Shown here: in pieces, positions 9,671 through 55,308 of the stretch
How the letters are laid out: each line of letters opens with the position of its first letter
Numbering within the stretch: the first letter of the stretch is position 1
Virus record (IMG/VR): IMGVR_UViG_3300042887_002054
Coordinates: 1 to 60,171 of that record
Length of the DNA: 60,171 bases
Reading direction: 5' to 3' (one strand)
From: a virus
Lineage: Duplodnaviria; Caudoviricetes
Translations under genes and position numbers: made by a program
The notes under the pieces: generated by a model
Seen by the model: only the letters and a program-made list of their open reading frames with translations
The model's database searches: none
Told to the model about the DNA's origin: nothing

Positions 9671-9679
9671 TATAAATAT
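9671..9679 (-). promoter_or_regulatory. Late-promoter motif ATATTTATA (representative copy)
   Basis: The same 9-mer recurs at gene boundaries: 1122, 13207, 14970, 17739, 20512, 25149, 29702, 33097, 41896, 48901, 52143, 55294, 56651, 57048, 57622, with variants at 4859, 11602 and about 1821. Confidence 0.8.
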
Positions 9680-13983: not shown

Positions 13984-14943
13984 TTATTTTATAATTCCTG
14001 CGTAAAATTTCATTTTGTTAAGATCGTATTGATCAACTTCTTGTATTGGTTCTTCTGTATCTTCTAATTCAATATCATCTACTTCAACACCACTACGTTT
14101 TTGTAAGTATTTTGATCCAGCAACTAAATCAGCTAAACGCTTCTCTAATGTTGTTCTTAAAGCACGTAAACGATCTAATTCTGTAGATGGTTCAGATGAA
14201 AACTCACCACCTGGTTTTGAACGTTTAGTTTTTGCAATATCACTTTTAACTTTAGTAATACGATCTTCTAATGTACTTGCTTGCATAAATGCTTCGTAAT
14301 CTTCATCTGATAATTGACCTGCTACTGGTGCTTTTTCAATTTCACCTGCTTCTGGTTCAATAAAATCTTCAGAACCATCAGCATTTGGTTCACCATCAAA
14401 ATACATTGCTAATGGGTTTTCAGCACCACCTACAAACATATCTTCAGCATCAGTTGCTGCTGGAGCTTGTGCTTGAGTACCTGGTGCTTCTTCCTCACCA
14501 CCTGCACCTAATTTTGTTAATACACCAGCATCCATTAAACCATTAACGATAGCGTTAGCGATTTGAGGGCGAGCAAAATTAAACTGTGTTTGTAATGCTT
14601 TTTTATCTGCACCTGGATTTTCTTTAAAGTAATTGATAACATCAGCTAGTGATGTACCTGAAATTGTTTTAGTAAATCCTGATGTATCAATATCATCATT
14701 TGTTAACTTATATCCTTTAGGGATACGGGCCATTTCATCAATATCATTTTCAGCTATATCTACAGGTTGACCTGATCGTTTTGCTTGTTGAATTGCTTGG
14801 CTCACTATTTGAGGAGTTGTTTTTTCACTTTTAGCAATTTGTCCAATTTCATCTGATTGAGTACCAGGAGTAACTTTAGTTACTTCACTTAATACATCTG
14901 TTATAGCTTCGCGTATAATTTTGCGTAGTTCTTTACTTTTCAT
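13984..14943 (-). CDS. Acidic hypothetical protein, probable internal head protein
   Basis: Start placed at MKSKELRKIIREAI, downstream of the late motif at 14970-14978. C-terminal KMKFYAGIIK resembles the scaffold tail. Confidence 0.6.
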   Translation of the reverse strand: MKSKELRKIIREAITDVLSEVTKVTPGTQSDEIGQIAKSEKTTPQIVSQAIQQAKRSGQPVDIAENDIDEMARIPKGYKLTNDDIDTSGFTKTISGTSLADVINYFKENPGADKKALQTQFNFARPQIANAIVNGLMDAGVLTKLGAGGEEEAPGTQAQAPAATDAEDMFVGGAENPLAMYFDGEPNADGSEDFIEPEAGEIEKAPVAGQLSDEDYEAFMQASTLEDRITKVKSDIAKTKRSKPGGEFSSEPSTELDRLRALRTTLEKRLADLVAGSKYLQKRSGVEVDDIELEDTEEPIQEVDQYDLNKMKFYAGIIK

Positions 14944-14977
14944 TTTGTCTGCGTTCGTGTTGTTCATCATATAAATA

Positions 14978-15496
14978 TTAAATATTTTGTAAGATTGTAG
15001 AAATGCGTTGCTCTGTTGTACCTTCAACCATAATTAATTTTTTAGGTATAAATTCAACTAATGACATTTTAATAACCTCATCTATTTTACGTCTGTAATC
15101 TAAATCAGTAGTTCTAACACCATTATCTTCAACTTCAACACCATTAGGAGAAACATATACTACTAAATCATATTGATTACGCAATGTCATAGCAGCCTCA
15201 ACAAATGAACGCTTATCAAATTGATCAATTGATTGAGCACCTAATGTAAATGCACATACATCCCAAATTGTTCTATCAGTAATAATATTTGGATATAATA
15301 ATTCAGTAGCACGTTCAGCTAAAAATACAAATTGACCTGGTAATGTAGAATCAGTATTTAAAGGAATACCCAAATCACGTAAATATTTACTACGTTCAGT
15401 ATGCACACTATGATCTTTAAATTGATCAATTTCACCTAATGCTTTTGCTAATGTAGTTTTACCTACAGACATTGTACCTGTTAATCCTATTCTCAT
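14978..15496 (-). CDS. P-loop nucleotide kinase/ATPase (NadR-kinase/AAA_28-like)
   Basis: IGLTGTMSVGKTT, ITDRT and EDNGVR motifs. Confidence 0.75.
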   Translation of the reverse strand: MRIGLTGTMSVGKTTLAKALGEIDQFKDHSVHTERSKYLRDLGIPLNTDSTLPGQFVFLAERATELLYPNIITDRTIWDVCAFTLGAQSIDQFDKRSFVEAAMTLRNQYDLVVYVSPNGVEVEDNGVRTTDLDYRRKIDEVIKMSLVEFIPKKLIMVEGTTEQRISTILQNI

Positions 15497-20494: not shown

Positions 20495-20526
20495 TTTGTG
20501 TTGTTTATGTGTATAAATATGTTAAA

Positions 20527-26216: not shown

Positions 26217-28238
26217 CTATTTTTTATTTTTAAGCATTGCTTTAATTAAGTCAATATGTCCTTCTCCTGCAGTAGCTATTACTTTGTAACCTCTACTTTC
26301 ATATTTCTTTAGTTTTGATAATAAGTTTTCATCTCTAGCTTCGTTAAAAGCATCAGCTACCTTAGCTACTTTTGTATACTTGTCTCCATAATCTGCTGGA
26401 AAAGAAAGTCTATATAAGGTATCGTAGTCTTTAGCTGTTGGTTCGGATAAATTATCTGAAAGTGGTAATTCGGCTTCTTGTGCTGCTGCTTTCAAAAACT
26501 TAATACCTTCTGTACTTAAGTAATCTTCTGGAGCGAAATCTGCTACTGATTGGCCTTGTAAAATATTTTGTCCAACCATACTAGCCCAATTAGCTGCTAA
26601 TATTTTACTACGAGAAAGACCTGTTTTTTCTTTTTGAATTTTGTACAAAAGGGATTGGTCATTCATTACATTTAAATCAGAACCATCCCATGAATCATTA
26701 ACTAGGTTTTTAAAGTAAGAACTTAATTCATCATAAATCATTTCTTGCTCACTACCTGCTACATACTTGTCATTATCATCCCCACCTTCTCCCATAAATG
26801 CTACCTTATCGTCAGGTGAAAAATTTTTCTTAACATAATCTACAACTTGTTTTGCATCTGACTCACTGTAATGCTCAACTCCAAAAATAATAGAATTACC
26901 AATAGGAAGTTGTTGAACTTCCTTTAAAATATTTTTTTTTGTAGCTGTTAGCTTTACCATTTTTTTATGTTCGTAAATACTATTATTTATCTTTCCAAAG
27001 TTTCTTAATAATACACCAGCCATTGCATTTGCTTCATCTTCAATAGGTGAACCAGTTTTACCGCTATTAATATCAAGACGACCATCTTCTTCTTGTTTAC
27101 GATGAATCAGTTCATGTGCCAATGTTCTCAATATGTCAGCCATGTTTCTATTCTTAACATAAACCCAAATCTTATTACTACTTGGATCAAAATAACCAAA
27201 ACTACGTTTTTCTTTTGCTTTGTCGTTATCGTAAGATAAAGTTAAGTTACTTGGAAGATTTTGCAACCCCAAGTTTTTAACTGAATATTTAATAAATTCA
27301 CCAATAGTCGCTGTTTGACTTTCGTTTAATCTACCTTCAGTTAAGTAAAATGCTTTTTCATTAGGCATATCAATTGTAGCCAATAATACTTTAGGTTCTT
27401 GACCTGCTTGTTTATATTTTCTTAATGTATCATTACCTGAAGCTAAGTAATAATTATCTTTATCATAATTCAATACTAATGCAGGATCTGTTGGTAATTC
27501 ACCACTATATTTACCTTTAATATTATATGAATCACTATTTTCTAATTTAGACCAAATATCATCTGATAAAAGGACCATACCACCAGCTGTAAAAGCATAT
27601 TTTAAATCTTCAAGAGGAATATTAAATTTTTCTGCTGTACGTTCAATATTACTTGCTTCTTTAGCTACATAAGCTGTGAAAGTATCATCTGTAGTTTGGT
27701 GATTAATTTCTATTAATGGCTTTTCAAGTACACCTAAAAAATCTTGCACATTAATACCTGTAGGGATAAATTTTTCAACTTCAGTTGGGTTTTTACCTAC
27801 TAATGCTGTTCTTAAACCAGTAGCGTTTACGCCTTCTCCTGCTATACCTGCATCAAATACTTTTACATTAGGAAATTGCAATGCACTTTTAAAACGATCT
27901 ACTTCACCTTTACCTGCAGCTAAAATAAAATTAGTATCAGGATTATCTTTAACAACGTTATAAACTTCTCTAATAGGACTTTCTTCAGTTAATTTTACTT
28001 CAACAGAACCATTCATTATTGTTTTATATAAATTCCATACAGCAACACTTTCATCAGCGTCAACACCATCACGAGTTTTAGGTGATACTAATATCACTAC
28101 TTGGTCTGCTTTATTTAGTAATTGTTGGACTACTTCAAAGTGACCTTTGTGTGGTGGTTTAAATGCACCTGGAAACAAAGCAATTGTTTGTTTGTCTGTT
28201 TCTAATAATACTTCTGCTATATATTGTCCTAAATTCAT
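26217..28238 (-). CDS. Multidomain protein: HxGH nucleotidyltransferase, unknown domain, HExxH metallopeptidase-like and TraB/Tiki-like domains
   Basis: FPGAFKPPHKGH...NATGLR, then RTLAHELIHRKQ...EDEAN, then FGVEH...GEG...ARD...GEGH. Start 28238 couples with the upstream stop (TAATG). Confidence 0.7.
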   Translation of the reverse strand: MNLGQYIAEVLLETDKQTIALFPGAFKPPHKGHFEVVQQLLNKADQVVILVSPKTRDGVDADESVAVWNLYKTIMNGSVEVKLTEESPIREVYNVVKDNPDTNFILAAGKGEVDRFKSALQFPNVKVFDAGIAGEGVNATGLRTALVGKNPTEVEKFIPTGINVQDFLGVLEKPLIEINHQTTDDTFTAYVAKEASNIERTAEKFNIPLEDLKYAFTAGGMVLLSDDIWSKLENSDSYNIKGKYSGELPTDPALVLNYDKDNYYLASGNDTLRKYKQAGQEPKVLLATIDMPNEKAFYLTEGRLNESQTATIGEFIKYSVKNLGLQNLPSNLTLSYDNDKAKEKRSFGYFDPSSNKIWVYVKNRNMADILRTLAHELIHRKQEEDGRLDINSGKTGSPIEDEANAMAGVLLRNFGKINNSIYEHKKMVKLTATKKNILKEVQQLPIGNSIIFGVEHYSESDAKQVVDYVKKNFSPDDKVAFMGEGGDDNDKYVAGSEQEMIYDELSSYFKNLVNDSWDGSDLNVMNDQSLLYKIQKEKTGLSRSKILAANWASMVGQNILQGQSVADFAPEDYLSTEGIKFLKAAAQEAELPLSDNLSEPTAKDYDTLYRLSFPADYGDKYTKVAKVADAFNEARDENLLSKLKKYESRGYKVIATAGEGHIDLIKAMLKNKK

Positions 28239-28909
28239 TATTTCATCCATTTTTTATCTGTGGTGAATTGAAAATTTTTATCTATATTTTCGTCTGTAGG
28301 TTGATAATATTGTTTATCTCCTGCTTTAATTAATTTATATTCTCCTAATTCTTTTTTCAAATAATCAAATAATTCTTGATCATTATTAAAAGTAATTTTT
28401 TGATCTGTTTGAGCTTTACCTCTAATAACAGGATATAATGCCGGTACTTTTTTCCACTGCATTATTTTTCTAAAAGATTGGATCGCGTCTGGATTTAGTA
28501 TATTTAATTCAGATCCACTAATAAGAGCATCTGTACCTTCTTGTCTAAGTTTATCAAATGCTTCTTTACCAATATTATGTAAATCAGATTTATTTATAAC
28601 TTTAGCGTTAGATTTTAATCTCATTTCATACATAAATCCTTCTTTAGCATATTCACTATAAAAGCCTGTATAATTCATGGGACAAAAAGAATCTCTACAT
28701 TCTTTATCTTTACCAAAGTAAATACCAATACCACTTTGAGATCCAGTATTACCTTCACCAGCTGCTTTAGCAGACATAAATTCTTTACCCTTATTTTGCC
28801 TAAATAAAGGATCTAAATCACCTTGATCAATATCAGCAGTTGAACCATGATACCAAATACCACCAACATCTCCATCAATTTCTTTTAATATGTCTAGTAA
28901 TTTAATCAC
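28238..28909 (-). CDS. Putative ADP-ribosyltransferase-fold protein with MIKL tag
   Basis: WYHGS...GIGIYF...Y...ELNILNPDAI resembles the H-Y-E ART pattern. GTG start. Confidence 0.55.
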   Translation of the reverse strand: MIKLLDILKEIDGDVGGIWYHGSTADIDQGDLDPLFRQNKGKEFMSAKAAGEGNTGSQSGIGIYFGKDKECRDSFCPMNYTGFYSEYAKEGFMYEMRLKSNAKVINKSDLHNIGKEAFDKLRQEGTDALISGSELNILNPDAIQSFRKIMQWKKVPALYPVIRGKAQTDQKITFNNDQELFDYLKKELGEYKLIKAGDKQYYQPTDENIDKNFQFTTDKKWMK

Positions 28910-31933: not shown

Positions 31934-32260
31934 TTAAGTATCGTATTTAACTACAAATGTCATGTCAGTATAAGGTGACATTAAAATTGGTTTACCAAAT
32001 TTAGCTACAGCTAATAATTCATTATTATTATTATATAAACCGATTGCTGTAGCATAAGGAGTAAAGTATGAGCCTGAAGGTAAAGCAGAGCCAGTGGCAA
32101 AATCTTTTAATGATCCACTTTGATAGTTGTTTACTAAAGTAGGATTGTATGATGCATTAAATTCAGTATTTTGAATAACACAACGCACTTCGTTTTCATA
32201 AACAGTATGATTGTTTTTGAAAGAAAGAGAAAATGATCCTGTATGTGTTATTGTTGGCAT
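31934..32260 (-). CDS. Baseplate/tail protein C-terminal module, paralogous to the C-terminus of 40194..41195
   Basis: IGLYNNNNELLAVAKFGKP versus VGMYNNNNELLAVAKLSKP. Confidence 0.75.
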   Translation of the reverse strand: MPTITHTGSFSLSFKNNHTVYENEVRCVIQNTEFNASYNPTLVNNYQSGSLKDFATGSALPSGSYFTPYATAIGLYNNNNELLAVAKFGKPILMSPYTDMTFVVKYDT

Positions 32261-32265
32261 TATTA

Positions 32266-33072
32266 TTATCGTTGGTTACCTATATAAGTATCTATAACGT
32301 AAGTGTTTCCAAAAGATCCTGATGGATATCCACTACCTCCATATAAAGGAACATTAATAAGTTGAAGTGCTGTACCCAAACCATTTAGAATGTAAGGACT
32401 ACCTGCATCTGGAGTACCATTTACTCTATAGATAATTTCTGATACTTGGTAATCAAAAACTCTTGTTTGTTGAGTAACTGCTACATAGAAGAAGTTTCCT
32501 GTTGGAATAGTAAAGGTTGTTGTACCAGTTGTGAACAATGTTTGTCTTAATCCCAAGGCACCACCATTAGTTAATGGATAGTAAATTTGAGTATATCCTG
32601 AATTACCAGAATCTACAGTTAAGTTAACAGTAACTGTTACGTTAGGTCTAGCAGATATAGTAGGTGTTAAAGTAGGTGTTGCCGTTAATGTAGGAGTAGG
32701 TGTTGATGTTGGTGTTTGTGTACTTGTTAAAGTAGGAGTAGGTGTTGTTGTTAACCCTGGAGTTACAGTTGGTGATGCTGTTAATGTTGGTGTTAAGAAT
32801 GGAGTTAACGTTGCTGTTGGAGTAACTGTTGAAGTTGGAGTTGGTGAAGGAGAAATTGGTAAAAACTCAACATAATTGTTATTACAAGCAGGATTTGAGT
32901 TTACTACTATAATTTTTGTTGGTGTTGGGTCTGGGAGTATATAAGTAATGCCTGTTCTTAAAGCAGCCGCAGGTATATTTTGCTCAATAGGAGGTGTACT
33001 TAAGCTATTAGCATAAATAGTATAAGGTCCTGGTGCGGTACCGCTAGTTAATTGTACAGATATTGTTGCCAT
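32266..33072 (-). CDS. Structural protein with a mucin-like Pro/Thr linker
   Basis: About 65-aa (T/S-P/L)n tract between two beta-rich domains. Late motif at 33097-33105. Confidence 0.75.
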   Translation of the reverse strand: MATISVQLTSGTAPGPYTIYANSLSTPPIEQNIPAAALRTGITYILPDPTPTKIIVVNSNPACNNNYVEFLPISPSPTPTSTVTPTATLTPFLTPTLTASPTVTPGLTTTPTPTLTSTQTPTSTPTPTLTATPTLTPTISARPNVTVTVNLTVDSGNSGYTQIYYPLTNGGALGLRQTLFTTGTTTFTIPTGNFFYVAVTQQTRVFDYQVSEIIYRVNGTPDAGSPYILNGLGTALQLINVPLYGGSGYPSGSFGNTYVIDTYIGNQR

Positions 33073-33105
33073 TTGTTAATTTACGTCAATGTTATATATA
33101 AATAT

Positions 33106-35439
33106 TTAATTTTCACGTCTTTCTTGACCGGGATAATAGTATATTCGGTTATGGTTAATAGGGGACAATAGCAATATAGCAGCATTTATTAAATTATTTT
33201 GTTGCATTTGAAATACATTGCTCATCCACGTTTGTTCCATTGGATGAGCCCACTTAATATCTAAAAATACTTTTTGATTTCCTATTTTACTAAACCATAA
33301 AGGCCAATTACAGTAATGTACTTCACCTTCTATATATGATATATCATCAGATCTTTTAATGTGACTAAACTTAGTTCTAGGAGCATTTGGGTCTAAACCT
33401 TGTACAGGTAACCTTGATTTTTTAGGAAAATATTGTTCTCTAACATTTTGAGGAATGTTATACCAAGACCACTGTGTTGCATTATCACCATATACTTCTG
33501 TAAAATTTAATTTTAAATAATCATAATTTTCATCATGAATTATTTTTAAAGTTTTATCATATAAGTTAGGTACATAGTTTTTAAAACCATTATAACAGTG
33601 ATTATCATTAGATGTATGTAATAACATATCATCCTCAAAGAAAATATAATAATCAGCATCACTTTCATCAAAATGTTCAGCACACCATTGTCTACCACCA
33701 CAAATTCCTATATTATCTTTTTTAGTTTCTTCAAATTCATATTCATTACAAATTTGAGTATACTCATCATCTGTAGTTCTGTCTGTTGAATTATTTAAAA
33801 AATACTTATTAGTTTTAGTTAAGAAATTAGAATCACTATTTTTAAAAGATTCTAATAAATGTCTAAATTGTTTTGGGGAATTAAATCCAACCACATATAA
33901 ATTAGTTTTTAATTTATTAAATGGTTTTTTAGCATCTTTAGGTCTTTCAAAATTTTTCAACATTTCAAAGAAAGGCCATACTAAACCATTTCCTTCAATT
34001 TCAAATGGTTGTATTAATTCTGGAAATTTGTATGTTAAAATTGTGAATAGACATTCATCAGCTCCCATGTATCTATTATTCAACGTGCTATCTAAAATAG
34101 AGTAATACAATGAATTTAATTGATGTATTTGGTCTTTACTACCTCCCCAAAACCCACCTCTAGATATTTTATTTACATACTCTACGCCACAGTATTGGGC
34201 CATTTTAATTCTTTCAAAACCATGTATTTCATCATTACTCTCATATGGGTATGTTATAAAAGTTAATTTTTGAATACTATCACTATATTCTTCTAACTTA
34301 TCTAAAACCTTATCATGTGTGAAATATCCTCTACTTACAGTAGAAGTTAAACCACCATCAATCCAATAAAAATATTCTGAGTTAAATGGATTTGTTATAG
34401 CAGTATCATTCACCATAAACATTTTACACATCATCATTGGGTTATAATATTCCAAGGCTGCTTGAGGTGATTCTGATAGCCAACCTGCAAAGTTATACCA
34501 ATCAGGATTAGTTCTTATTTCTTGTAATTGATTCCAAAACGGGAACCATACTTTAAAATCTTCTAATTCTCTAATGTATATTCGAGTTGGTTTATCACCT
34601 CTAATAGCAAGTACTTCTGCTTCTAAATCACGAGGTATCCAAATAGCCATTTGAGCATCTGTTTCTAATAACTCAAAAAATCTATCTTTGTATTGTTGAA
34701 AATCACGTTTAGCCCACCCATCAATACTACCTCTTCCTAAATCCCACAATCCTGTAACTATTGTAGTATTACTATTAGATGTTTCAATTTGAATTGATTT
34801 TACTTTTCTTTTAATTTTTAAAGCCATAGAAGCCCAACCATCTACCCAACCACAAGTAGCTATAGGTTCCATATCATATTTTGATTCATCAAAACATTCT
34901 GATAAAGATTTTATACTGTGTTCTTCCCAAGATGGTAAACCATATACATCATCTATAACAATAATAGCTTCATCTTCTAAATAGTTAAATATAGTATTTA
35001 AAGCATATCTTGAAGCTGAATATAGATCTAGATCAAGATGTATAAATTTAATTCTTTGATTTTTTTCTTTTAAAAAGTCTAATAAAGTATCTTCTACTTT
35101 ACCTACAATAAAAGTATTTTTATCTGTATCTACGGGAATAGAAGTAGCAAATGCATTTTTATTATATAATACATTTCCACTAGATTCAGCCCAATCTTCA
35201 GGTAATCCTGAAAATGTATCAAACCCATATACTATAGTATTTTCTGTATTCTGGTTTATTAAACTTAAAGTATGTCCAGTAAATACTCCCAATTCCATAA
35301 AAAGGGAATTAGATGAAGCTGATATATCAATATGTTTAAATATATCTTCAAAGTATGTAGGTTGACTTAACCAATTTTTAGGACCATAATCAGGTACCTT
35401 AGATTGATTAATAAGATCTACTATGTCATTAACAGTCAT
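33106..35439 (-). CDS. Tri-domain protein: TylF-like SAM O-methyltransferase, HtrL/WlaTC-like domain and GT-A glycosyltransferase
   Basis: ELGVFTG...GFDTFSGLPE...HLDLDLY...IDD, then TTIVTGLWDLGR...YWIDGG...GGFWGG, then YIFFEDD. Confidence 0.75.
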   Translation of the reverse strand: MTVNDIVDLINQSKVPDYGPKNWLSQPTYFEDIFKHIDISASSNSLFMELGVFTGHTLSLINQNTENTIVYGFDTFSGLPEDWAESSGNVLYNKNAFATSIPVDTDKNTFIVGKVEDTLLDFLKEKNQRIKFIHLDLDLYSASRYALNTIFNYLEDEAIIVIDDVYGLPSWEEHSIKSLSECFDESKYDMEPIATCGWVDGWASMALKIKRKVKSIQIETSNSNTTIVTGLWDLGRGSIDGWAKRDFQQYKDRFFELLETDAQMAIWIPRDLEAEVLAIRGDKPTRIYIRELEDFKVWFPFWNQLQEIRTNPDWYNFAGWLSESPQAALEYYNPMMMCKMFMVNDTAITNPFNSEYFYWIDGGLTSTVSRGYFTHDKVLDKLEEYSDSIQKLTFITYPYESNDEIHGFERIKMAQYCGVEYVNKISRGGFWGGSKDQIHQLNSLYYSILDSTLNNRYMGADECLFTILTYKFPELIQPFEIEGNGLVWPFFEMLKNFERPKDAKKPFNKLKTNLYVVGFNSPKQFRHLLESFKNSDSNFLTKTNKYFLNNSTDRTTDDEYTQICNEYEFEETKKDNIGICGGRQWCAEHFDESDADYYIFFEDDMLLHTSNDNHCYNGFKNYVPNLYDKTLKIIHDENYDYLKLNFTEVYGDNATQWSWYNIPQNVREQYFPKKSRLPVQGLDPNAPRTKFSHIKRSDDISYIEGEVHYCNWPLWFSKIGNQKVFLDIKWAHPMEQTWMSNVFQMQQNNLINAAILLLSPINHNRIYYYPGQERREN

Positions 35440-37079
35440 TATAACTCAAATTTTAAATTTCTATTTTCATCAGCCACAATAATATATTGAATACCATCAA
35501 GTAAAAAATAAATTTCTAACTTTTTTTCAATACCATAATAAGGATCACCACCTATATTATTATCTACTCTTATATCAAATCTTTTATAGTTGTTTGCTTC
35601 TAAATTGTGTTTGATTTGTTCAGTAACATCAACTACTACTCTTTCAGCAAATGCTTTTCCTTCATCTTGTTGTTCTCCTAAAGTACCATAAAATGCTCTA
35701 ACAACTTCTATTTTAGAATCTTTATATTTTTCTTTATTGTATATATCTTGAGGTAAATAGGTAAAATAACCATTAAAATCAAAATGATAAAATTCATATA
35801 CTGATGGGTTTCTGTAATGATTTAACCATGCTTCAAAATACCATCTATCACCATGAGTAGGTTTCGCATTAATTCTTACAAAAGATAAATTAGCCCACCA
35901 AAAATTACCCCACCACCACTTATCATTATTAGTAACACCACATTGCTCGTATTCATCTAGTTTTTGAAGACAATCCTGGAAGTTATCTATTAAAAAATAT
36001 TCCATTATTTCTTTCCACCACCCAATACCTATTTGTTTTCGTTGAGATACTACTTTTGTTTCTAAATTAGCATAAAGATTAGAAACACCTTTAGTATGAA
36101 AATAAAATACTTTTCCTTTATATTGTTGTGAATATTCCCATACTTTATTAATTCCTTCGTATTCGTAATGATTATTAACAAACTTATTTAAAACAGCTTT
36201 GTCTAAATCTTTAACTAATTCATCTATACCCTCAAATTGATCTAAAGTATCAACACAAGTAATTTCTAGCTTATCACACCAATCATATAAACCTGATGTT
36301 TTTAGGCGATTTAGTTGGTGTTTAACTACTTCTAAGTAATTACCTACACAATATATATGGTATACTATTAAATTTATATTTTTCATATCATTATATATTT
36401 CAAACTTTGATCTATATATTATATCTAAAGTTCGATTAGGTGCATAACCATAAGCAAATGCATGAAATATAAAATTACCTTCATTGTAATAGCTATGATT
36501 AAAAGATCTACTGCTTATTATTTTAATATGGTTTTTAACTTCATCATCATTTCTATATAGTAAAGTAATACATGTTTGTTCGTGCCATAAAGCCCATTTA
36601 AAATATCCTGCTTTTTCTAAATTTTCTTCCATGATTTCAAGACCAGAAGGAGCATCTTTTCCTTTATAAGTTTCTCCTGATTCCCACCATGTTTTTAAAA
36701 AGTTTTTAGACCATTCACTATTTTTAACTAAAAATACTCCTGTATTCATAGAACTATGGTAACCGATATCTTCAGCAAAAACCATATCATGGTCATTATC
36801 TATAAAATCTTCAATATTTTGATTAAAATCAGAAATAATAGCATCAGCATCTAAAAATAAGACATAATCAAATTTATCAGTATCTAATAATTCTTGAACT
36901 AATTTTACTTTACCCCAATGGAATGATCTTTCATCACATATACTAGTAATTCTTTCAGTATTCTTTTCACACACATAAGTGTATCCTTTATCTTCACAAT
37001 ATTTTTGGTTTATCATTTCAGAATAAACCCCATAATTTATATTACTAGTGTAAAATTGTAATACTGCTATATTCATCAT
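35439..37079 (-). CDS. GT34 (GMA12/MNN10)-like glycosyltransferase with a YFHTKG domain and a C-terminal SUEL-lectin-like domain
   Basis: WGKV...FLDADAII...NTGVFLVKNSEWS...EQ, then FYFHTKGVS...WGNFWW, then RAFYG...DVT...GDPYYGIEKKLEI. Confidence 0.75.
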   Translation of the reverse strand: MMNIAVLQFYTSNINYGVYSEMINQKYCEDKGYTYVCEKNTERITSICDERSFHWGKVKLVQELLDTDKFDYVLFLDADAIISDFNQNIEDFIDNDHDMVFAEDIGYHSSMNTGVFLVKNSEWSKNFLKTWWESGETYKGKDAPSGLEIMEENLEKAGYFKWALWHEQTCITLLYRNDDEVKNHIKIISSRSFNHSYYNEGNFIFHAFAYGYAPNRTLDIIYRSKFEIYNDMKNINLIVYHIYCVGNYLEVVKHQLNRLKTSGLYDWCDKLEITCVDTLDQFEGIDELVKDLDKAVLNKFVNNHYEYEGINKVWEYSQQYKGKVFYFHTKGVSNLYANLETKVVSQRKQIGIGWWKEIMEYFLIDNFQDCLQKLDEYEQCGVTNNDKWWWGNFWWANLSFVRINAKPTHGDRWYFEAWLNHYRNPSVYEFYHFDFNGYFTYLPQDIYNKEKYKDSKIEVVRAFYGTLGEQQDEGKAFAERVVVDVTEQIKHNLEANNYKRFDIRVDNNIGGDPYYGIEKKLEIYFLLDGIQYIIVADENRNLKFEL

Positions 37080-37086
37080 TTAATTT

Positions 37087-38343
37087 TTATGGTAATATAC
37101 CTTCAAGTCGTTCACACCACCCTTCAGTTATAGAATGTGGCCAAACTATCCATTTTGCTGGTTTAACAGATGTGCTAAATTCTCTCCAAACTTTGTAATA
37201 TCCGTCTCCAAAATCTGCTTTCATTACGTTTATTTCATCTAAAGTAGCATCTCGTCTATGCAATTCATTTCCATCTTTATCTTCAAAAGCAACAACCCAA
37301 AAATCATAATCAACTAAGGGTACTTGGTGTGGGTAAATATCTATACAATGTTTAAATATAGACATAAAAGACATATCGTAATCTACAGGACCTGTAATAA
37401 ATGGGTTAGGTGCAAATAGATTATCTTTAGTATATTGTTGAATAGCTCTATCTCTAAAACGAATACCAGCATAAGCTTCATATTGAAATAAACTTCTTTC
37501 AGTTCCAAAATCATGTGGACCAAATTCTAACCCACATCTACATTCACCATCAACCCCGAATAAAGCTCTATTTTTCTTATGAGCATTAGTATTTTTATTA
37601 ACCCAATCAGGATCATCATCCCATTGTTTAGTTCTACCTTTACGAGTATACTCATGCCAAGCAATTACTTTATGCGGGTGAAATAAATCATATCCCCAAG
37701 TATATGAACGAACAGCTAATGAAATTTCCTCACCATGAAAATAATAATCTGGATCATAAGGTACTTCAACACACCATTGTCCTAAAGTAAAAATAAAGTG
37801 AGCTGATAAGAATCGTGATGGTATTGGAGATTTTAATTTTTTCCAATCTGGAATAGTTGCAGGTAAAAAGAATATAGCACCTTCAGGAATAAATCTATCA
37901 AATGTCATCCACCAAGGTTCTTGAACACGTCCTCCTGGATCATTATCTGGGTCAAATGATGATATATAAGCAGTTAATAGGGGTTTTTTATGACCTTTCT
38001 TTTGTAATTGCTTAATCATTTTAATACACTCAGTATCCCAACCTTTAATAAAACGGTGGTGTGAATCTAATTGTAAATAATAATCTTCCCCACCATATAA
38101 TTTATGGATTTCACTTCTAGCCCAACATGCTCCTTTAGAATCTTTGTAATCAATATTAACAATTCTAAAACGAGTATCGTTTCTAAATTCACTTAAATCA
38201 TCCCAAGTATCTTCTTCAGCATGTTGCCAGGCAATACCAAATACTAAATCTTCAGGATTATCTGCATTGTTGATACAGTCGTGTAATGTAGGCAATAATT
38301 GTGGGTCTCTATAGGATGCTATAGAAATGTAAATTTTACTCAT
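37087..38343 (-). CDS. GT60-like polypeptide N-acetylhexosaminyltransferase (Skp1 GlcNAc-T/Gnt family)
   Basis: ISIASYRDP, GACWAR, YYLQLDSHHRF (DSH motif), SAHFIF, VPYDP and FHGEEISLAVR.YT.GYD motifs. Confidence 0.85.
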   Translation of the reverse strand: MSKIYISIASYRDPQLLPTLHDCINNADNPEDLVFGIAWQHAEEDTWDDLSEFRNDTRFRIVNIDYKDSKGACWARSEIHKLYGGEDYYLQLDSHHRFIKGWDTECIKMIKQLQKKGHKKPLLTAYISSFDPDNDPGGRVQEPWWMTFDRFIPEGAIFFLPATIPDWKKLKSPIPSRFLSAHFIFTLGQWCVEVPYDPDYYFHGEEISLAVRSYTWGYDLFHPHKVIAWHEYTRKGRTKQWDDDPDWVNKNTNAHKKNRALFGVDGECRCGLEFGPHDFGTERSLFQYEAYAGIRFRDRAIQQYTKDNLFAPNPFITGPVDYDMSFMSIFKHCIDIYPHQVPLVDYDFWVVAFEDKDGNELHRRDATLDEINVMKADFGDGYYKVWREFSTSVKPAKWIVWPHSITEGWCERLEGILP

Positions 38344-38347
38344 AACT

Positions 38348-38379
38348 AAAATATAACTAATTTATTTTATAACTCCAAA
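38348..38379 (-). promoter_or_regulatory. Bacteroidota-type promoter of the glycosyltransferase operon
   Basis: TTTG-N20-TATATTTT, 4 nt before the ATG. Confidence 0.75.
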
Positions 38380-38396
38380 CTTTATATAATATTATA

Positions 38397-40187
38397 CTAA
38401 TGTGTTAAACCACAGTTAACTGTGTAAGATGTATTAGGAGATACTGTAAATTCATAGGAAGCTACTACGTTATTTCCTTGAGAATAAGCAACAGTTGCTA
38501 CTCTACTACCATTAAAATTAACATAAGCATATGTTGTTGTACAAGGAGGATAATCATGTGTATACGCAATACTTCTTATATAAACTACTGAATTACCACG
38601 AACATTTGATTGAGAATATCCTCCAAATGTTTGGAAAGTACCTGTACCACCGGTTCCAGTAAAGCTATTATAAACATAGTTTCCTGAAGAACCCCACGGA
38701 CCTATATAGTTTCCATCTGGGTCAGTTGCTTCAAAGAAACATCCATGATCGACTGAGAAAGAACAGCCATCATATAATTGACCATTATCTTCATACATGA
38801 TGACATTAGCTGGTAATTGTGTAGGAGTAGGAGTAGGTGTTGGTGTAGCTGTAAGTGTTCTTGTTGCTGTTTGAGTAGGGGTGTTTGTTGGGGTTGGTGT
38901 ATTTGTTGATGTTGAAGTATTTGTTGGTGTAGGTGTTGGCGTTAATGTTCTTGTTGCAGTCAACGTTTGAGTAGCAGTTGGAGTAACTGTTCTTGTTGCA
39001 GTCAACGTTTGAGTAGCAGTAGCAGTAACTGTTCTTGTTGCAGTTAATGTTGGAGTTTGTGTAGAAGTTTGAGTTGGAGTATTAGTTGGTGTCGGTGTAT
39101 TTGTTGCAGTTAATGTTTGAGTTGCAGTTGGAGTAACTGTTCTTGTTGCTGTTAATGTTGGAGTACGTGTTGGTGTTGGTGTTGGTGTAGGAGTAGGAGC
39201 AAAGAAAGTAACGTTAATTCCAAATTCACAATCTGGTTCAATAACATTAAATCTTACTAGTGCTTTATTACTAGTTAAAACTGTTCCACAAGTATCATTT
39301 AATAAAGCATCTACAGTATAATAAGCATCATAAGTTCCTGGAGTAAAAAACTTCCAGTTACTAGATGTTATAGGTTGATATGTTACTGGACTGCCTCCAG
39401 GAATAATAACATCAGCATACATTACTACTGATTCACTAAAACTACCTGTTAATTTGATAATATCTAGTTGATCAATACTTCCGGATAACACTACAGAACC
39501 TGTAAGTATTGTTCCTGATCTAGCGATGTCATTAGTTAAAATTACACTTCCTGATTTAGTTAAATCACTTGATCTAACTGTTATAATATTTGCAACTGCT
39601 AAAGGAGGAAGAGGGAACATATTTTGATAATCCTGATTAGTAATTACTGCTAGTCCTTGAGGATAAAATATATTACCAACATGATTACTTCCGGTGTCAA
39701 ATAAATTTCCATTACCATCATCTGTTATATAATAAGCAGAAGATGATAGTTTAAAATTATATGGTAATACTTTTTCACCATATACATCTTGATTAATAGC
39801 TAATACACGAATACCTGCATTAGTACCTGTAGGAAAATTCTTAATTAAATTAGGATTTTCATCATAAATAAAATATGATGAAGTAGCGTATTGTTGAGAG
39901 GCTGATTCATATAAGAATGAATTAGCTAAAGAAGAGGTATCTAAAAAAGAACCACTAAATGAGTGGTAGAATAAATGATTAATTTGATCATAAACTAAAC
40001 GTTCATACTGCCCTTCAGTTACAGGGTCCATGGTAGTGTCAAAGCTACCAGACATGTTAGTACCTTTATAAATCGTTATATGTTCAGAAGAAGTAGGGTA
40101 TGAACAGTAGGATAAATCCCATTGTTTATTTGCTGCATAAGCAACATTCGTAACGTCTGACTTGTTTAGTTGTTTGAATGATGACAT
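38397..40187 (-). CDS. Baseplate/tail-associated protein with a long mucin-like Thr/Pro stalk and a distal domain
   Basis: The N-terminal part (DDGNGNL...VGNIFY) parallels 40194..41195. It is followed by about 125 aa of Thr-rich repeats. Confidence 0.75.
38820..39198 (-). repeat. Thr/Pro coding repeats, including tandem 42-bp units ([14 protein letters not shown])
   Basis: Near-identical GCAGTCAACGTTTGAGTAGCAGT.G.AGTAACTGTTCTTGTT units around 38956-39040, with further degenerate copies. Confidence 0.9.
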
Positions 40188-40193
40188 ACATGA

Positions 40194-41195
40194 TTAGTAA
40201 TCTAACTTCACTCTAATTAATGCCTCTTTAGTAAAATCTTTTACTAATGGTTTACTTAATTTAGCTACTGCTAATAATTCATTATTGTTATTATACATAC
40301 CTACTGTTGTAATGTATGTTTGAGGATTATTAATTAATGAGGTATATAATAAGTTACCATTAGCATCTATAATAGATGGGTTTGTTGTATAATTGTATTC
40401 ACTATTTTTAATACGAGTAAAGAAATAACGTGCAGAAACAGTTTCAGATGATTTTAAAGTAAAACTACCTGTAGCATTACCTCTAGCAATTGAATCATAT
40501 AAATTTCTATGATTATAAGCTGTTGTGTTACCTAAACTAGAAGTAACAAAATAACCACCACCAATACTAGATGTTAAAGCATTTGCATCTAATACAATGA
40601 TATCTAAATCTGGGAAGAATAAACCATAGTAAGTAGTTGCAGACCCTGTTGTAAAATAAGAACCATTACTTCCACTAATTACATTAAAATATCTATTTTC
40701 ACCAAGAAAACGAGTTAAATTTGTAGTACCACTATCATCTGTTAAGAATAAAGAACTTGTAGCTGTACCTTTCAATACTAAATTTAAAGAACCAGGTAAT
40801 AAAGATTCTTTGTAACGAGCTCTAGAAATATTAATTACATAAATTGAATCTGAAGTAGTACTATTATTATCAAAACTGAAGTTTGTTGTTTCAGTTCCAT
40901 AAACTAAATTTCTGTATTGTCCATAAACAACACGAGATGGACTATAACCAGGAACTGCAACATTAATTGGAGCGGATCCTGAACCATTCAAATTACCATA
41001 TTGAATACTAAATTGAACAGAAGCAGAATTTACTGTTGATGGATTACCATCATACACATCTAAATAATATTCAGTTGGTGTTACTGATGAGGTAAAAAAG
41101 GCTGGTAGAGAATTAGCGTCTCCACTAAATAAACCACGTACCACGGTTTCTGAACTAATTACTGAATCTTCTGGGTTATATATTGTAAATGACAT
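40194..41195 (-). CDS. Baseplate/tail structural protein
   Basis: S/T/N-rich, C-terminal VGMYNxxNELLAVAK motif typical of baseplate/tail-collar proteins. Confidence 0.7.
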   Translation of the reverse strand: MSFTIYNPEDSVISSETVVRGLFSGDANSLPAFFTSSVTPTEYYLDVYDGNPSTVNSASVQFSIQYGNLNGSGSAPINVAVPGYSPSRVVYGQYRNLVYGTETTNFSFDNNSTTSDSIYVINISRARYKESLLPGSLNLVLKGTATSSLFLTDDSGTTNLTRFLGENRYFNVISGSNGSYFTTGSATTYYGLFFPDLDIIVLDANALTSSIGGGYFVTSSLGNTTAYNHRNLYDSIARGNATGSFTLKSSETVSARYFFTRIKNSEYNYTTNPSIIDANGNLLYTSLINNPQTYITTVGMYNNNNELLAVAKLSKPLVKDFTKEALIRVKLDY

Positions 41196-41874: not shown

Positions 41875-41920
41875 AATTCTTTATGTTGTATATATTATAA
41901 ATATATTAAATTGTTAATTT

Positions 41921-55279: not shown

Positions 55280-55308
55280 AAAATGCGTTTACGTATAAAT
55301 ATAAGTAA

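Follow-up and report, generated by a model that had tools for sequence, protein, structure and literature searches.

A candidate cytoplasmic mucin-type O-glycosylation cassette in the variable tail-fibre slot of an Immutovirus-like lake phage

The window analysed here is a whole viral contig of IMG/VR (IMGVR_UViG_3300042887_002054; 60,171 bases, about 31% G+C, estimated genome completeness 38%), in which three adjacent enzyme genes—the first of them for a GT60-family glycosyltransferase—lie between the genes of two proteins with long threonine-rich tracts, PT596 and PT268. Judged by comparison with relatives, this 7-kb segment is an accessory cassette in the variable tail-fibre slot of an Immutovirus-like lake myovirus. 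Because the pairing of such enzymes with such tracts recurs in other phages and in bacteria, the enzymes probably sugar-coat the threonine-rich stalks, and we favour, with some reserve, the reading that the cassette is a phage cytoplasmic mucin-type O-glycosylation system that acts on the (Thr-x)n stalks of the fibres encoded by the phage itself.

In the mechanism that we propose, the soluble GT60 enzyme, with its DxH metal site and a UDP-N-acetylhexosamine donor, would attach the initial sugar to threonines in the PT596 and PT268 tracts, in the cytoplasm. The GT34 domain, an unclassified GT-A domain, an HtrL domain and a GT2-like GT-A domain would then extend the glycan, and a methyltransferase domain that the closest relatives lack would cap a sugar. 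The outcome would be stiff, protease-resistant, glycan-coated stalks held between a conserved N-terminal anchor domain and a distal domain. What the sequences show is gene order, family and fold assignments, missing signal peptides and transmembrane segments, and a recurrent gene neighbourhood; acceptor, donor sugar, sequence of steps and benefit to the phage are inferred. A previous sequence-only reading of this DNA had proposed the same succession of priming, elongation and capping; the enzyme families and the neighbourhoods support that outline in part, while its lectin and promoter components found no support.

The cassette enzymes and their proposed acceptors

The five open reading frames (ORFs) that the sequence-only reading had placed here are all present and all on the minus strand. 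Read in the coding direction, they are PT596, a fibre-module protein (38397..40187, 596 amino acids); the GT60-family (PF11397) glycosyltransferase proposed as the primer (37087..38343, 418 amino acids); a protein combining a GT34 and a second GT-A domain (35439-37079, 546 amino acids); a protein combining methyltransferase, HtrL and GT-A domains (33106-35439, 777 amino acids); and PT268, the second tract protein (32266..33072, 268 amino acids). The enzyme genes are tightly packed, with one 7-base gap and one 1-base overlap. Each of the four junctions—PT596/GT60 (X4 record 15), GT60/GT34 (X9 record 30), GT34/methyltransferase-HtrL (X3 record 3) and methyltransferase-HtrL/PT268 (X3 record 1)—is spanned by contigs from other lake metagenomes (four in all), so that a chimera of assembly does not explain the gene order.

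The identification of the first enzyme as GT60 proved sound. The 418-residue protein is a firm member of PF11397 (229.4 bits against a cut-off of 21; E 1.1e-67), covering profile positions 2-44 and 92-348 of 352, and it matches the glycosyltransferase family phrog_24687 at E 8.9e-167. The strings IASYRD, QLDSH and FHGEE, singled out earlier as family motifs, all occur in it, and R12, Q91, D93, S94, H95, F202, G204 and E206 are invariant in 25/25 aligned phage homologues. Residues Q91-L-D93-S94-H95 hold the DxH metal-binding motif of GT60, which stands in place of DxD and is described as a hallmark of GT27 and GT60 (PMC7185993; here and below, cited papers are represented by excerpts of their text). 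The characterised GT60 of Trypanosoma cruzi makes GlcNAc-alpha1-O-Thr on mucin-like proteins (PMC9472816). Neither phmmer nor a 25-sequence profile found a GT60 match in the PDB, and the 120 listed of at least 7,750 relatives in a protein collection carry generic names only. On its motifs and family, the 418-residue protein is probably a soluble enzyme that primes a glycan on tract threonine.

In PT596, the proposed O-glycosylation acceptor is a (Thr-x)n tract at 38832..39200 (minus strand; about residues 330–452), recognized from composition and tandem repeats. Thr makes up 47% and Pro 15% of residues 322–452, where Thr alternates with other residues (60 T-x-T in 131 residues); in residues 70–152 of PT268 (tract at about 32623-32856) the shares are 39% and 20%. 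Earlier estimates of about 125 and about 65 residues came close for the first tract and fell somewhat short for the second, and “(Thr-x)n” fits both tracts better than the original “Thr/Pro.” TRF finds degenerate 18/42/108-base repeats beneath both, with tandem repeats at 38819-39199 for PT596. When a fixed criterion was applied to all ORFs of at least 80 amino acids across the 60,171 bases, PT596 and PT268 were the only two tract ORFs. No transmembrane segment or signal peptide was found in the three enzymes, PT596 or PT268 (maximum KD(19) ≤1.27), and enzymes and tract proteins would therefore meet in the cytoplasm.

Around its tract, PT596 consists of an N-terminal domain common to relatives (residues 1 to about 320) and a C-terminal domain of about 145 residues for which no relatives were detected. 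Pfam gave no match to PT596, and an Atlas search with the N-terminal domain returned one unnamed viral cluster only (score 0.75). A match of the whole protein to PDB entry 8zvk (E 3.7e-9) was rejected as a low-complexity effect of the tract, because it was lost when the C-terminal 146 residues were searched alone.

The tract-coding DNA also stands out in environmental data. At window positions 38925-39205, summed contig depth in four lake metagenomes reaches 1600-3400x and contigs break; other window bins lie mostly at about 4-250x, though some bins of run X9 climb to about 1,000x. Similar (Thr-x)n-coding repeats must therefore be very common in those lake communities. Read joints within and between tracts were considered as deletion variants and rejected, their sides being only 21-28 letters long and resembling repeat cross-matches.

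The two larger enzymes proved richer in domains than had been supposed. In the 546-residue protein, only the N-terminal 200 or so residues belong to GT34 (residues about 27–200, 36480..37001, minus strand). This assignment, already made from sequence, was borne out by PF05637 (54.9 bits, cut-off 23; the match is split in two, and its best part spans profile positions 141-212 of 238) and by a phmmer match of residues 50–150 to xyloglucan xylosyltransferase XXT1 (6bsu, E 7.6e-5). The remainder had been read as a lectin-like domain, for which we find no support. Residues 235–440 (35760..36377, minus strand) instead adopt a GT-A fold in the AF2 model (pLDDT 81.5): VIA-align superposes 162 residues on the GlcNAc-transferase domain of heparosan synthase 2 (Z 13.1, root-mean-square deviation 3.4) and returns many further GT-A enzymes at Z 9-11, with weak Foldseek matches. 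The last 105 or so residues (35442..35759, minus strand), the part originally taken for lectin-like, are rich in beta strands in the AF2 model and resemble nothing found; Pfam gave no match to the C-terminal 100 or so residues, Atlas gave nothing usable for residues 452–546, and the fold searches barely probed this part. The Pfam scan of all three enzymes detected no lectin family. The C-terminal module (GT-A plus tail) occurs as a separate ORF of 315 amino acids in loci L022-L024.

The 777-residue protein begins with a class I methyltransferase domain (residues 47–167, 34939..35301, minus strand) that matches PF13578 (Methyltransf_24) at 28.3 bits (cut-off 26.3) and the methyltransferase family phrog_6608 at E 2.8e-25. 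The proposal of a TylF-like O-methyltransferase holds insofar as the domain is class I and resembles sugar O-methyltransferases (a weak match to CalS11, E 0.0096), while its score against TylF itself (PF05711) stays under the cut-off (20.5 versus 23 bits). The closest relatives (L004, L006, L007 and L039) lack the domain. Next comes an HtrL/YibB domain (residues 223–477, 34009..34773, minus strand; PF09612, 66.7 bits, cut-off 24.1) that falls under the NCBIfam equivalog cut-offs (61 versus 264.9; 33 versus 342) and is, on these scores, a domain relative and not an orthologue of E. coli YibB. The C-terminal domain (residues 495–777, 33109..33957, minus strand; AF2 pLDDT 82.1) has the GT-A fold, with Foldseek matches to the glycosyltransferase domain of LH3, TarP, RmlT and GalNAc-T3 (E 1.8e-8, probability 1.0) and with E108-D109-D110 (domain numbering) invariant in 15/15 sequences. 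The HtrL and GT-A domains of this protein and the second GT-A domain of the 546-residue protein had all been missed before. By profile matches and fold models, then, the cassette holds a single methyltransferase domain and as many as five domains of transferase type.

Recurrence of GT60 genes with threonine tracts

The pairing was examined from both sides, with 42 GT60 loci recovered from IMG/VR and a GT60 tree of 58 sequences on the enzyme side, and with the best 80 of at least 597 IMG/VR relatives of the fibre gene p221 on the other. A tract ORF lies in the flank of 28/42 GT60 loci, often as the very next gene, and within 7 kb in 36 of the 50 scorable rows of the tree (8 rows were not scorable). 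An HtrL/GT-A unit is present at 29/42 loci, and GT60 with HtrL/GT-A is, by gene content, the conserved core of the cassette. The PT596 N-terminal domain is kept in 16/42 GT60 loci, and PT268 homologues come after the cassette in L004-L013.

Within this phage group, every GT60 locus with at least 3 kb of downstream flank has tract ORFs (16/16). Among the 42 loci with at least 9 kb downstream, 14 have both GT60 and a tract, none has GT60 without a tract, 11 have a tract without GT60 and 17 have neither; here GT60 therefore always comes with tracts, and tracts often come without GT60. The expected co-occurrence was thus found in one direction, from enzyme to tract, and not in the other.

Elsewhere the same neighbours reappear in other company. 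The unrelated phage locus L040 encodes a tract protein, GT60, two ORFs and another tract protein, and the first residues of the two middle ORFs look methyltransferase-like and glycosyltransferase-like (by eye). In L025, L022-24 and L030/31, tract or Thr-rich ORFs adjoin the cluster or directly trail it. A further clade (L028, L032-38, L045) has tandem GT60 paralogues, two further ORFs, a carbamoyltransferase-like ORF and an HtrL/GT-A protein. Tandem GT60 paralogues are frequent among the loci in general; L037 (9971-18601, from G028) and its relatives carry two. GT60, carbamoyltransferase and HtrL/GT-A genes lie beside replication genes in L037, L001 and L217, a set that includes Xanthomonas jumbo phages.

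To compare whole genomes, we counted a (Tx)8 pattern with at most one mismatch against a reversed-pattern control, with the absence of GT60 in GT60-negative records checked over the whole record. Pattern and control counts in GT60-positive records are 390/49 (G028), 131/1 (G033), 299/2 (Xoo-sp13), 29/1 (RAS14), 5/1 (G040) and 6/1 (G023), and XacN1 gives 77/0 with a stricter pattern. GT60-negative records give 0/3 (G036), 0/1 (G037), 0/0 (G038), 0/6 (Flavobacterium phage vB_FspM_immuto, hereafter immuto), 0/0 (Microcystis phage Mel-JY01) and 16/0 (G039). In all, 7/9 GT60-positive records (XacN1 included) and 1/6 GT60-negative records exceed the control, and the cultured jumbo phages that carry GT60 have many tracts. 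An exact (Tx)12 pattern had no match in RAS14. In the complete genome G028, a strict (PT)4 DNA pattern had implied that tracts were lacking; this was rejected once translation of the whole genome turned up long TPTITPS-type tracts in five large ORFs, which lie at 12-20 kb and at 130-135 kb. The GT60–tract pairing in G028 holds at the level of the genome, not locally. In Xoo-sp13, a tract protein of 996 amino acids (L216 18650-21640; record 108649-111639) was annotated “mucin-16-like protein” by its depositors, and several other large hypothetical proteins of that phage have the same type of tract.

Bacteria show a similar association. We took the best 80 of 407 stretches encoding GT60 relatives in species-representative genomes and defined a stringent tract ORF as one of at least 200 amino acids with a tract of at least 60 residues and low Arg. 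Such an ORF lies within 1.5 kb of GT60 at 16/80 loci; the density of tract ORFs is about six-fold higher near GT60 (17 in 219.6 kb) than farther out (10 in 783.6 kb). By record titles, seven phyla are involved: Bacteroidota, Gemmatimonadota, Verrucomicrobiota, Planctomycetota, Acidobacteriota, Alphaproteobacteria and Actinomycetota. An HtrL/GT-A partner is present at 36/80 bacterial loci. In 9 of the 16 bacterial tract proteins, the N-terminus, read by eye, carries an RR-containing Tat-like signal with the tract immediately after it (L140, L141, L143, L154, L179, L180, L186, L187 and L201, all with Pro/Thr/Ser tracts beside GT60), and these proteins, spread over several phyla, look like an undescribed class of exported mucin-like proteins. 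The locus of the environmental isolate Jiulongibacter sediminis (L154), for example, as read from its translations, begins with UDP-glucose dehydrogenase, UDP-glucuronate decarboxylase, a short GT60-like gene and a Tat-like tract protein of 262 amino acids, and continues with GT60, a carbamoyltransferase and a fusion protein in which a methyltransferase-like N-terminal domain precedes HtrL and GT-A. Since a soluble transferase here sits beside a substrate that would use folded-protein export, glycosylation before export would fit.

It is tempting, if doubtful on present sequences, to go further and see in GT60 with HtrL/GT-A an old, mobile, cytoplasmic mucin-type module of prokaryotes. Such a module would act, in many bacterial phyla, on tract proteins exported folded through Tat, would have been captured repeatedly by phages for their fibre stalks, and would represent the prokaryotic equivalent, and perhaps the source, of GT60/GT27 mucin-type glycosylation in eukaryotes.

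The fibre slot and competing explanations

Relatives without GT60 indicate where the cassette sits. In G036-G038 (GT60-negative, 94-100% complete), p333 is followed by one protein of about 310-340 amino acids that equals the PT596 N-terminal domain fused to a p108-like C-terminal domain, and then directly by p151 and the primase; the immuto slot resembles theirs. In the window, about 7 kb lie between those two halves, namely the tract with a new C-terminal domain, the three enzyme genes and PT268. The fusion in these minimal relatives thus implies that the cassette sits inside what is elsewhere one gene. Here p108 (31934..32260, minus strand) is a free-standing copy of a module of about 100 residues and resembles the C-terminus of p333 and five places in Mel-JY01. 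The module, in which a ...NNNNELLAVAK...KP... stretch is conserved, forms the end of several fibre-module proteins and is present at the C-terminus of 40194-41195, in L046/L047 and five times in the Mel-JY01 locus.

Other relatives fill the slot differently. L085 (13066-16498) and L098 (12869-15035) hold other cassettes, with a GT2–methyltransferase fusion, a TOD1/MUCI70-like protein, GT2 and a hexapeptide acyltransferase, and a recurrent protein of 313 amino acids without Pfam match is also found among them. L089 has a SET-domain ORF in the slot (14737-15066), and the ORF sizes of L104 (13206-16733) equal those of the L085 glycosyltransferase cassette, in a comparison of sizes only. From these comparisons, the slot is a hypervariable place for distal fibre parts and modifying enzymes.

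Several observations weigh against glycosylated stalks as the explanation of the pairing. In L079, L090 and L107, the gene next to the tract fibre is already the p108 homologue, and enzyme genes are missing from the interval; L092 and L104 hold other slot ORFs and no tract by our criterion; and adjacency in this phage group could arise partly from both features sharing one hypervariable slot. Tracts are present at 11/28 GT60-negative loci with at least 9 kb downstream, and 21 tract-positive records have no PF11397 match on the whole contig (contigs 6-67% complete), 14 of them having no PF00535 (GT2) match either. Conversely, 14/50 scorable tree rows, in two lineages, show no nearby tract despite enough flank. 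The cluster of the clade with tandem paralogues adjoins DNA polymerase and FolE-like genes (by eye) and has no tract within 10 kb, and the G028 GT60 gene, at about 90-92 kb, is roughly 40-80 kb from the tracts of that genome. Two GT60-positive records give (Tx)8 and control counts of 11/17 (G032, not above control) and 0/0 (G022, 25% complete), and 64/80 bacterial loci are without an adjacent stringent tract ORF. Lastly, the GT60 family assignment rests on the Pfam model, because no solved structure or named characterised GT60 can be aligned directly to the window enzyme.

The variability of the slot lends itself to an explanation in which the cassette glycosylates a host target, i.e., an envelope glycan or host protein, for receptor masking against superinfection or for cell remodelling, and the slot merely tolerates insertions. 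The unrelated cassettes found there (GT2 with methyltransferase, TOD1-like, hexapeptide acyltransferase, SET domain) and the slot ORFs of L092 and L104 that lack a tract would fit it, as would the position of the cluster outside the structural module in G028, Xoo-sp13 and XacN1. HtrL/YibB is, moreover, a gene of the E. coli lipopolysaccharide-core region, and bacterial GT60 enzymes sit among UDP-sugar genes. We nevertheless think a host target unlikely: tract adjacency recurs outside the hot spot (L040, L025, L022-24) and in bacteria, the enzymes have no membrane segment, and the characterised GT60 enzymes act on polypeptides in the accounts we drew on.

Genome-level co-occurrence of GT60 and tracts, together with their immediate adjacency in many lineages, argues similarly against enzymes that serve other virion proteins and tracts that are plain flexible linkers. 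Mycobacteriophages would offer the precedent, since their capsid and tail-tube subunits bear glycans at the C-terminus (Freeman et al. 2023, Cell Host Microbe, as cited in PMC12619734), and both the many relatives that have tract fibres with no glycosyltransferase at hand and the distance of the G028 GT60 gene from its tract genes would agree with such a division. In the window, however, no Ser/Thr-rich segment like those of the tracts is seen on the coding strand in the major head protein or elsewhere among the ORFs, and we rate this second alternative as improbable.

That the cassette hypermodifies phage DNA with sugars strikes us as highly improbable. Phage glycosyltransferases that modify DNA are well known (PMC12619734), and GT60 clusters do adjoin DNA polymerase, RNase H, FolE and dCTP-deaminase-like genes in L037/G028, Xoo-sp13 and XacN1. 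In the window, by contrast, the genes are embedded between fibre-module genes; no hydroxymethylase is found among the scanned ORFs of a window that represents 38% of the genome; the bacterial cluster lies beside Tat-like tract proteins, not beside genes of DNA metabolism; and GT60 enzymes acting on DNA are not described in the portions of the family literature consulted.

If glycosylation of the stalks is the right reading, then many abundant freshwater phages would have fibre stalks coated with glycans (at least 597 fibre-gene relatives and at least 7,750 enzyme relatives), with consequences for adsorption, for how sticky and how protease-resistant the particles are, and for phage recognition. 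On the bacterial side, the tract proteins with Tat-like signals beside GT60 would then represent a new general route of bacterial protein O-glycosylation, and the reading would inform the origin of mucin-type glycosylation in eukaryotes. With its relatives, the locus supplies a defined enzyme–substrate pair that can be tested, and cultured phages bearing GT60 exist, Stenotrophomonas phages RAS14 and CM1 among them.

Known systems, transcription signals and the source phage

Like T. cruzi TcOGNT1 and the Dictyostelium GT60, the window enzyme has the PF11397 family match and the DxH motif, and what we propose here parallels T. cruzi as described in the excerpts, where Thr-rich mucin-like acceptors receive a first sugar that other transferases extend. 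Those enzymes, however, are eukaryotic and act in the Golgi, whereas the window enzyme is a soluble phage protein with predicted virion acceptors. Dictyostelium Gnt1 acts on a hydroxyproline of cytoplasmic Skp1. The serine-rich-repeat adhesins of Gram-positive bacteria are also primed in the cytoplasm, before export: GtfA/GtfB place GlcNAc on long Ser/Thr repeats, and several further transferases encoded beside the substrate gene extend it. Their primer is a GT4 enzyme of GT-B fold and their export uses accessory Sec, while the window primer is GT60, its bacterial relatives are associated with Tat-like signals, and the tract proteins of the window phage, unlike the adhesins, are not exported. 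GT27 enzymes bear a C-terminal ricin-type lectin domain, which the Pfam scan did not find in the three window enzymes. In its dense Thr/Pro tract acceptors, the animal GT27 mucin-type system does resemble the one proposed here, and the GT27 ppGalNAc-transferases are described as the sister family of GT60, with DxH and the same mode of Ser/Thr glycosylation (PMC7185993).

Phage virion glycosylation is itself already known and has been suggested for XacN1, for which at least two virion glycoproteins were reported, with phage glycosyltransferases suggested as their makers (Yoshikawa et al. 2018, PMC5852040). In XacN1, the GT60 homologue is ORF334, which shares 45.5% identity with the window enzyme; ORF333 is a carbamoyltransferase and ORF330 is the HtrL/GT-A partner. 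XacN1 thus shares with the window phage GT60, HtrL/GT-A and, in a genome rich in them, (Tx)n tracts; its cluster differs in having a carbamoyltransferase and in lying near replication genes, not in the fibre module. The excerpts of the XacN1 paper (PMC5852040) name neither GT60, Thr-rich tracts nor the glycosylated proteins. Mycobacteriophages, according to the source excerpted above, likewise use phage glycosyltransferases to O-glycosylate their own structural proteins in the cytoplasm, as proposed here, although their hosts are actinobacterial and their sites C-terminal, as against GT60, internal (Thr-x)n fibre tracts and a likely Bacteroidota host in our case. Phage-directed literature searches returned no function assigned to prokaryotic or viral GT60, nor any description of GT60 use, a mucin-like acceptor, this phage group or the Tat-like bacterial counterpart; a CASP16 paper and an HFTV1 paper that came up as candidates were discarded as irrelevant.

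Transcription signals lend no support to a separate start for the enzyme genes. The host-type promoter postulated for them exists as a sigma-70-like site (TTAACT-17-TATAAT, 38391..38419, minus strand, 10/12 matches), but sites of this kind occur in the region at chance frequency (56 versus 61.3 expected in shuffles), and we therefore make no promoter claim from it; Bacteroidota hosts use a promoter consensus that differs from sigma-70. A 9-mer of the phage's own, ATATTTATA, has 16 matches, all on the minus (coding) strand, against 6.55 expected on both strands. Its copies lie mostly 20-30 bases ahead of start codons, of structural and other genes, and the element is probably a promoter (perhaps late) of the phage itself. 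One copy stands directly upstream of PT268 (33097..33105, minus strand) and one upstream of p221 (41896..41904, minus strand); further minus-strand copies are at 1122-1130, 9671-9679, 20512-20520 and 55294-55302. The copy at p221 is a possible promoter for p221-p333-PT596 and, via read-through, for the enzyme genes. GT60 is not preceded by a ATATTTATA copy, the interval that separates it from PT596 (38343-38397) holds no terminator-like site, and the suggested timing, with enzymes made early and substrates late, is accordingly unsupported.

Nearly all window genes are on the minus strand, and among their products are a major head protein, portal, large terminase, baseplate wedge, endolysin, primase and exonuclease. 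Of the cultured phages, immuto (genus Immutovirus, 160 kb) is closest, with 47% identity in the baseplate wedge, 49% in p333 and 60% in p221, followed by Mel-JY01; “T4-like,” the label first given to the phage, is loose and was not borne out. A megablast search of the region against cultured phages gave no matches, and DNA nearly identical to the window is present in many lake-water metagenomes. The host is probably a freshwater member of the Bacteroidota, a placement made solely because the nearest cultured relative infects Flavobacterium.

Two minor observations concern other proteins of these phages. In the related contigs L079 (17770-20304) and L085 (19071-20243), proteins with a hydrophobic, signal-peptide-like N-terminus continue, by eye, into a stretch resembling a carboxypeptidase-regulatory-like domain; such domains are known from Bacteroidota outer-membrane proteins, and the resemblance is a weak hint of the host. 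In the window itself, an ORF of 677 amino acids (26217-28250) has weak cytidylyltransferase/adenylyltransferase-like matches in its N-terminal part and a weak metalloprotease-like match in mid-protein, and a link to nucleotide-sugar supply is conceivable.

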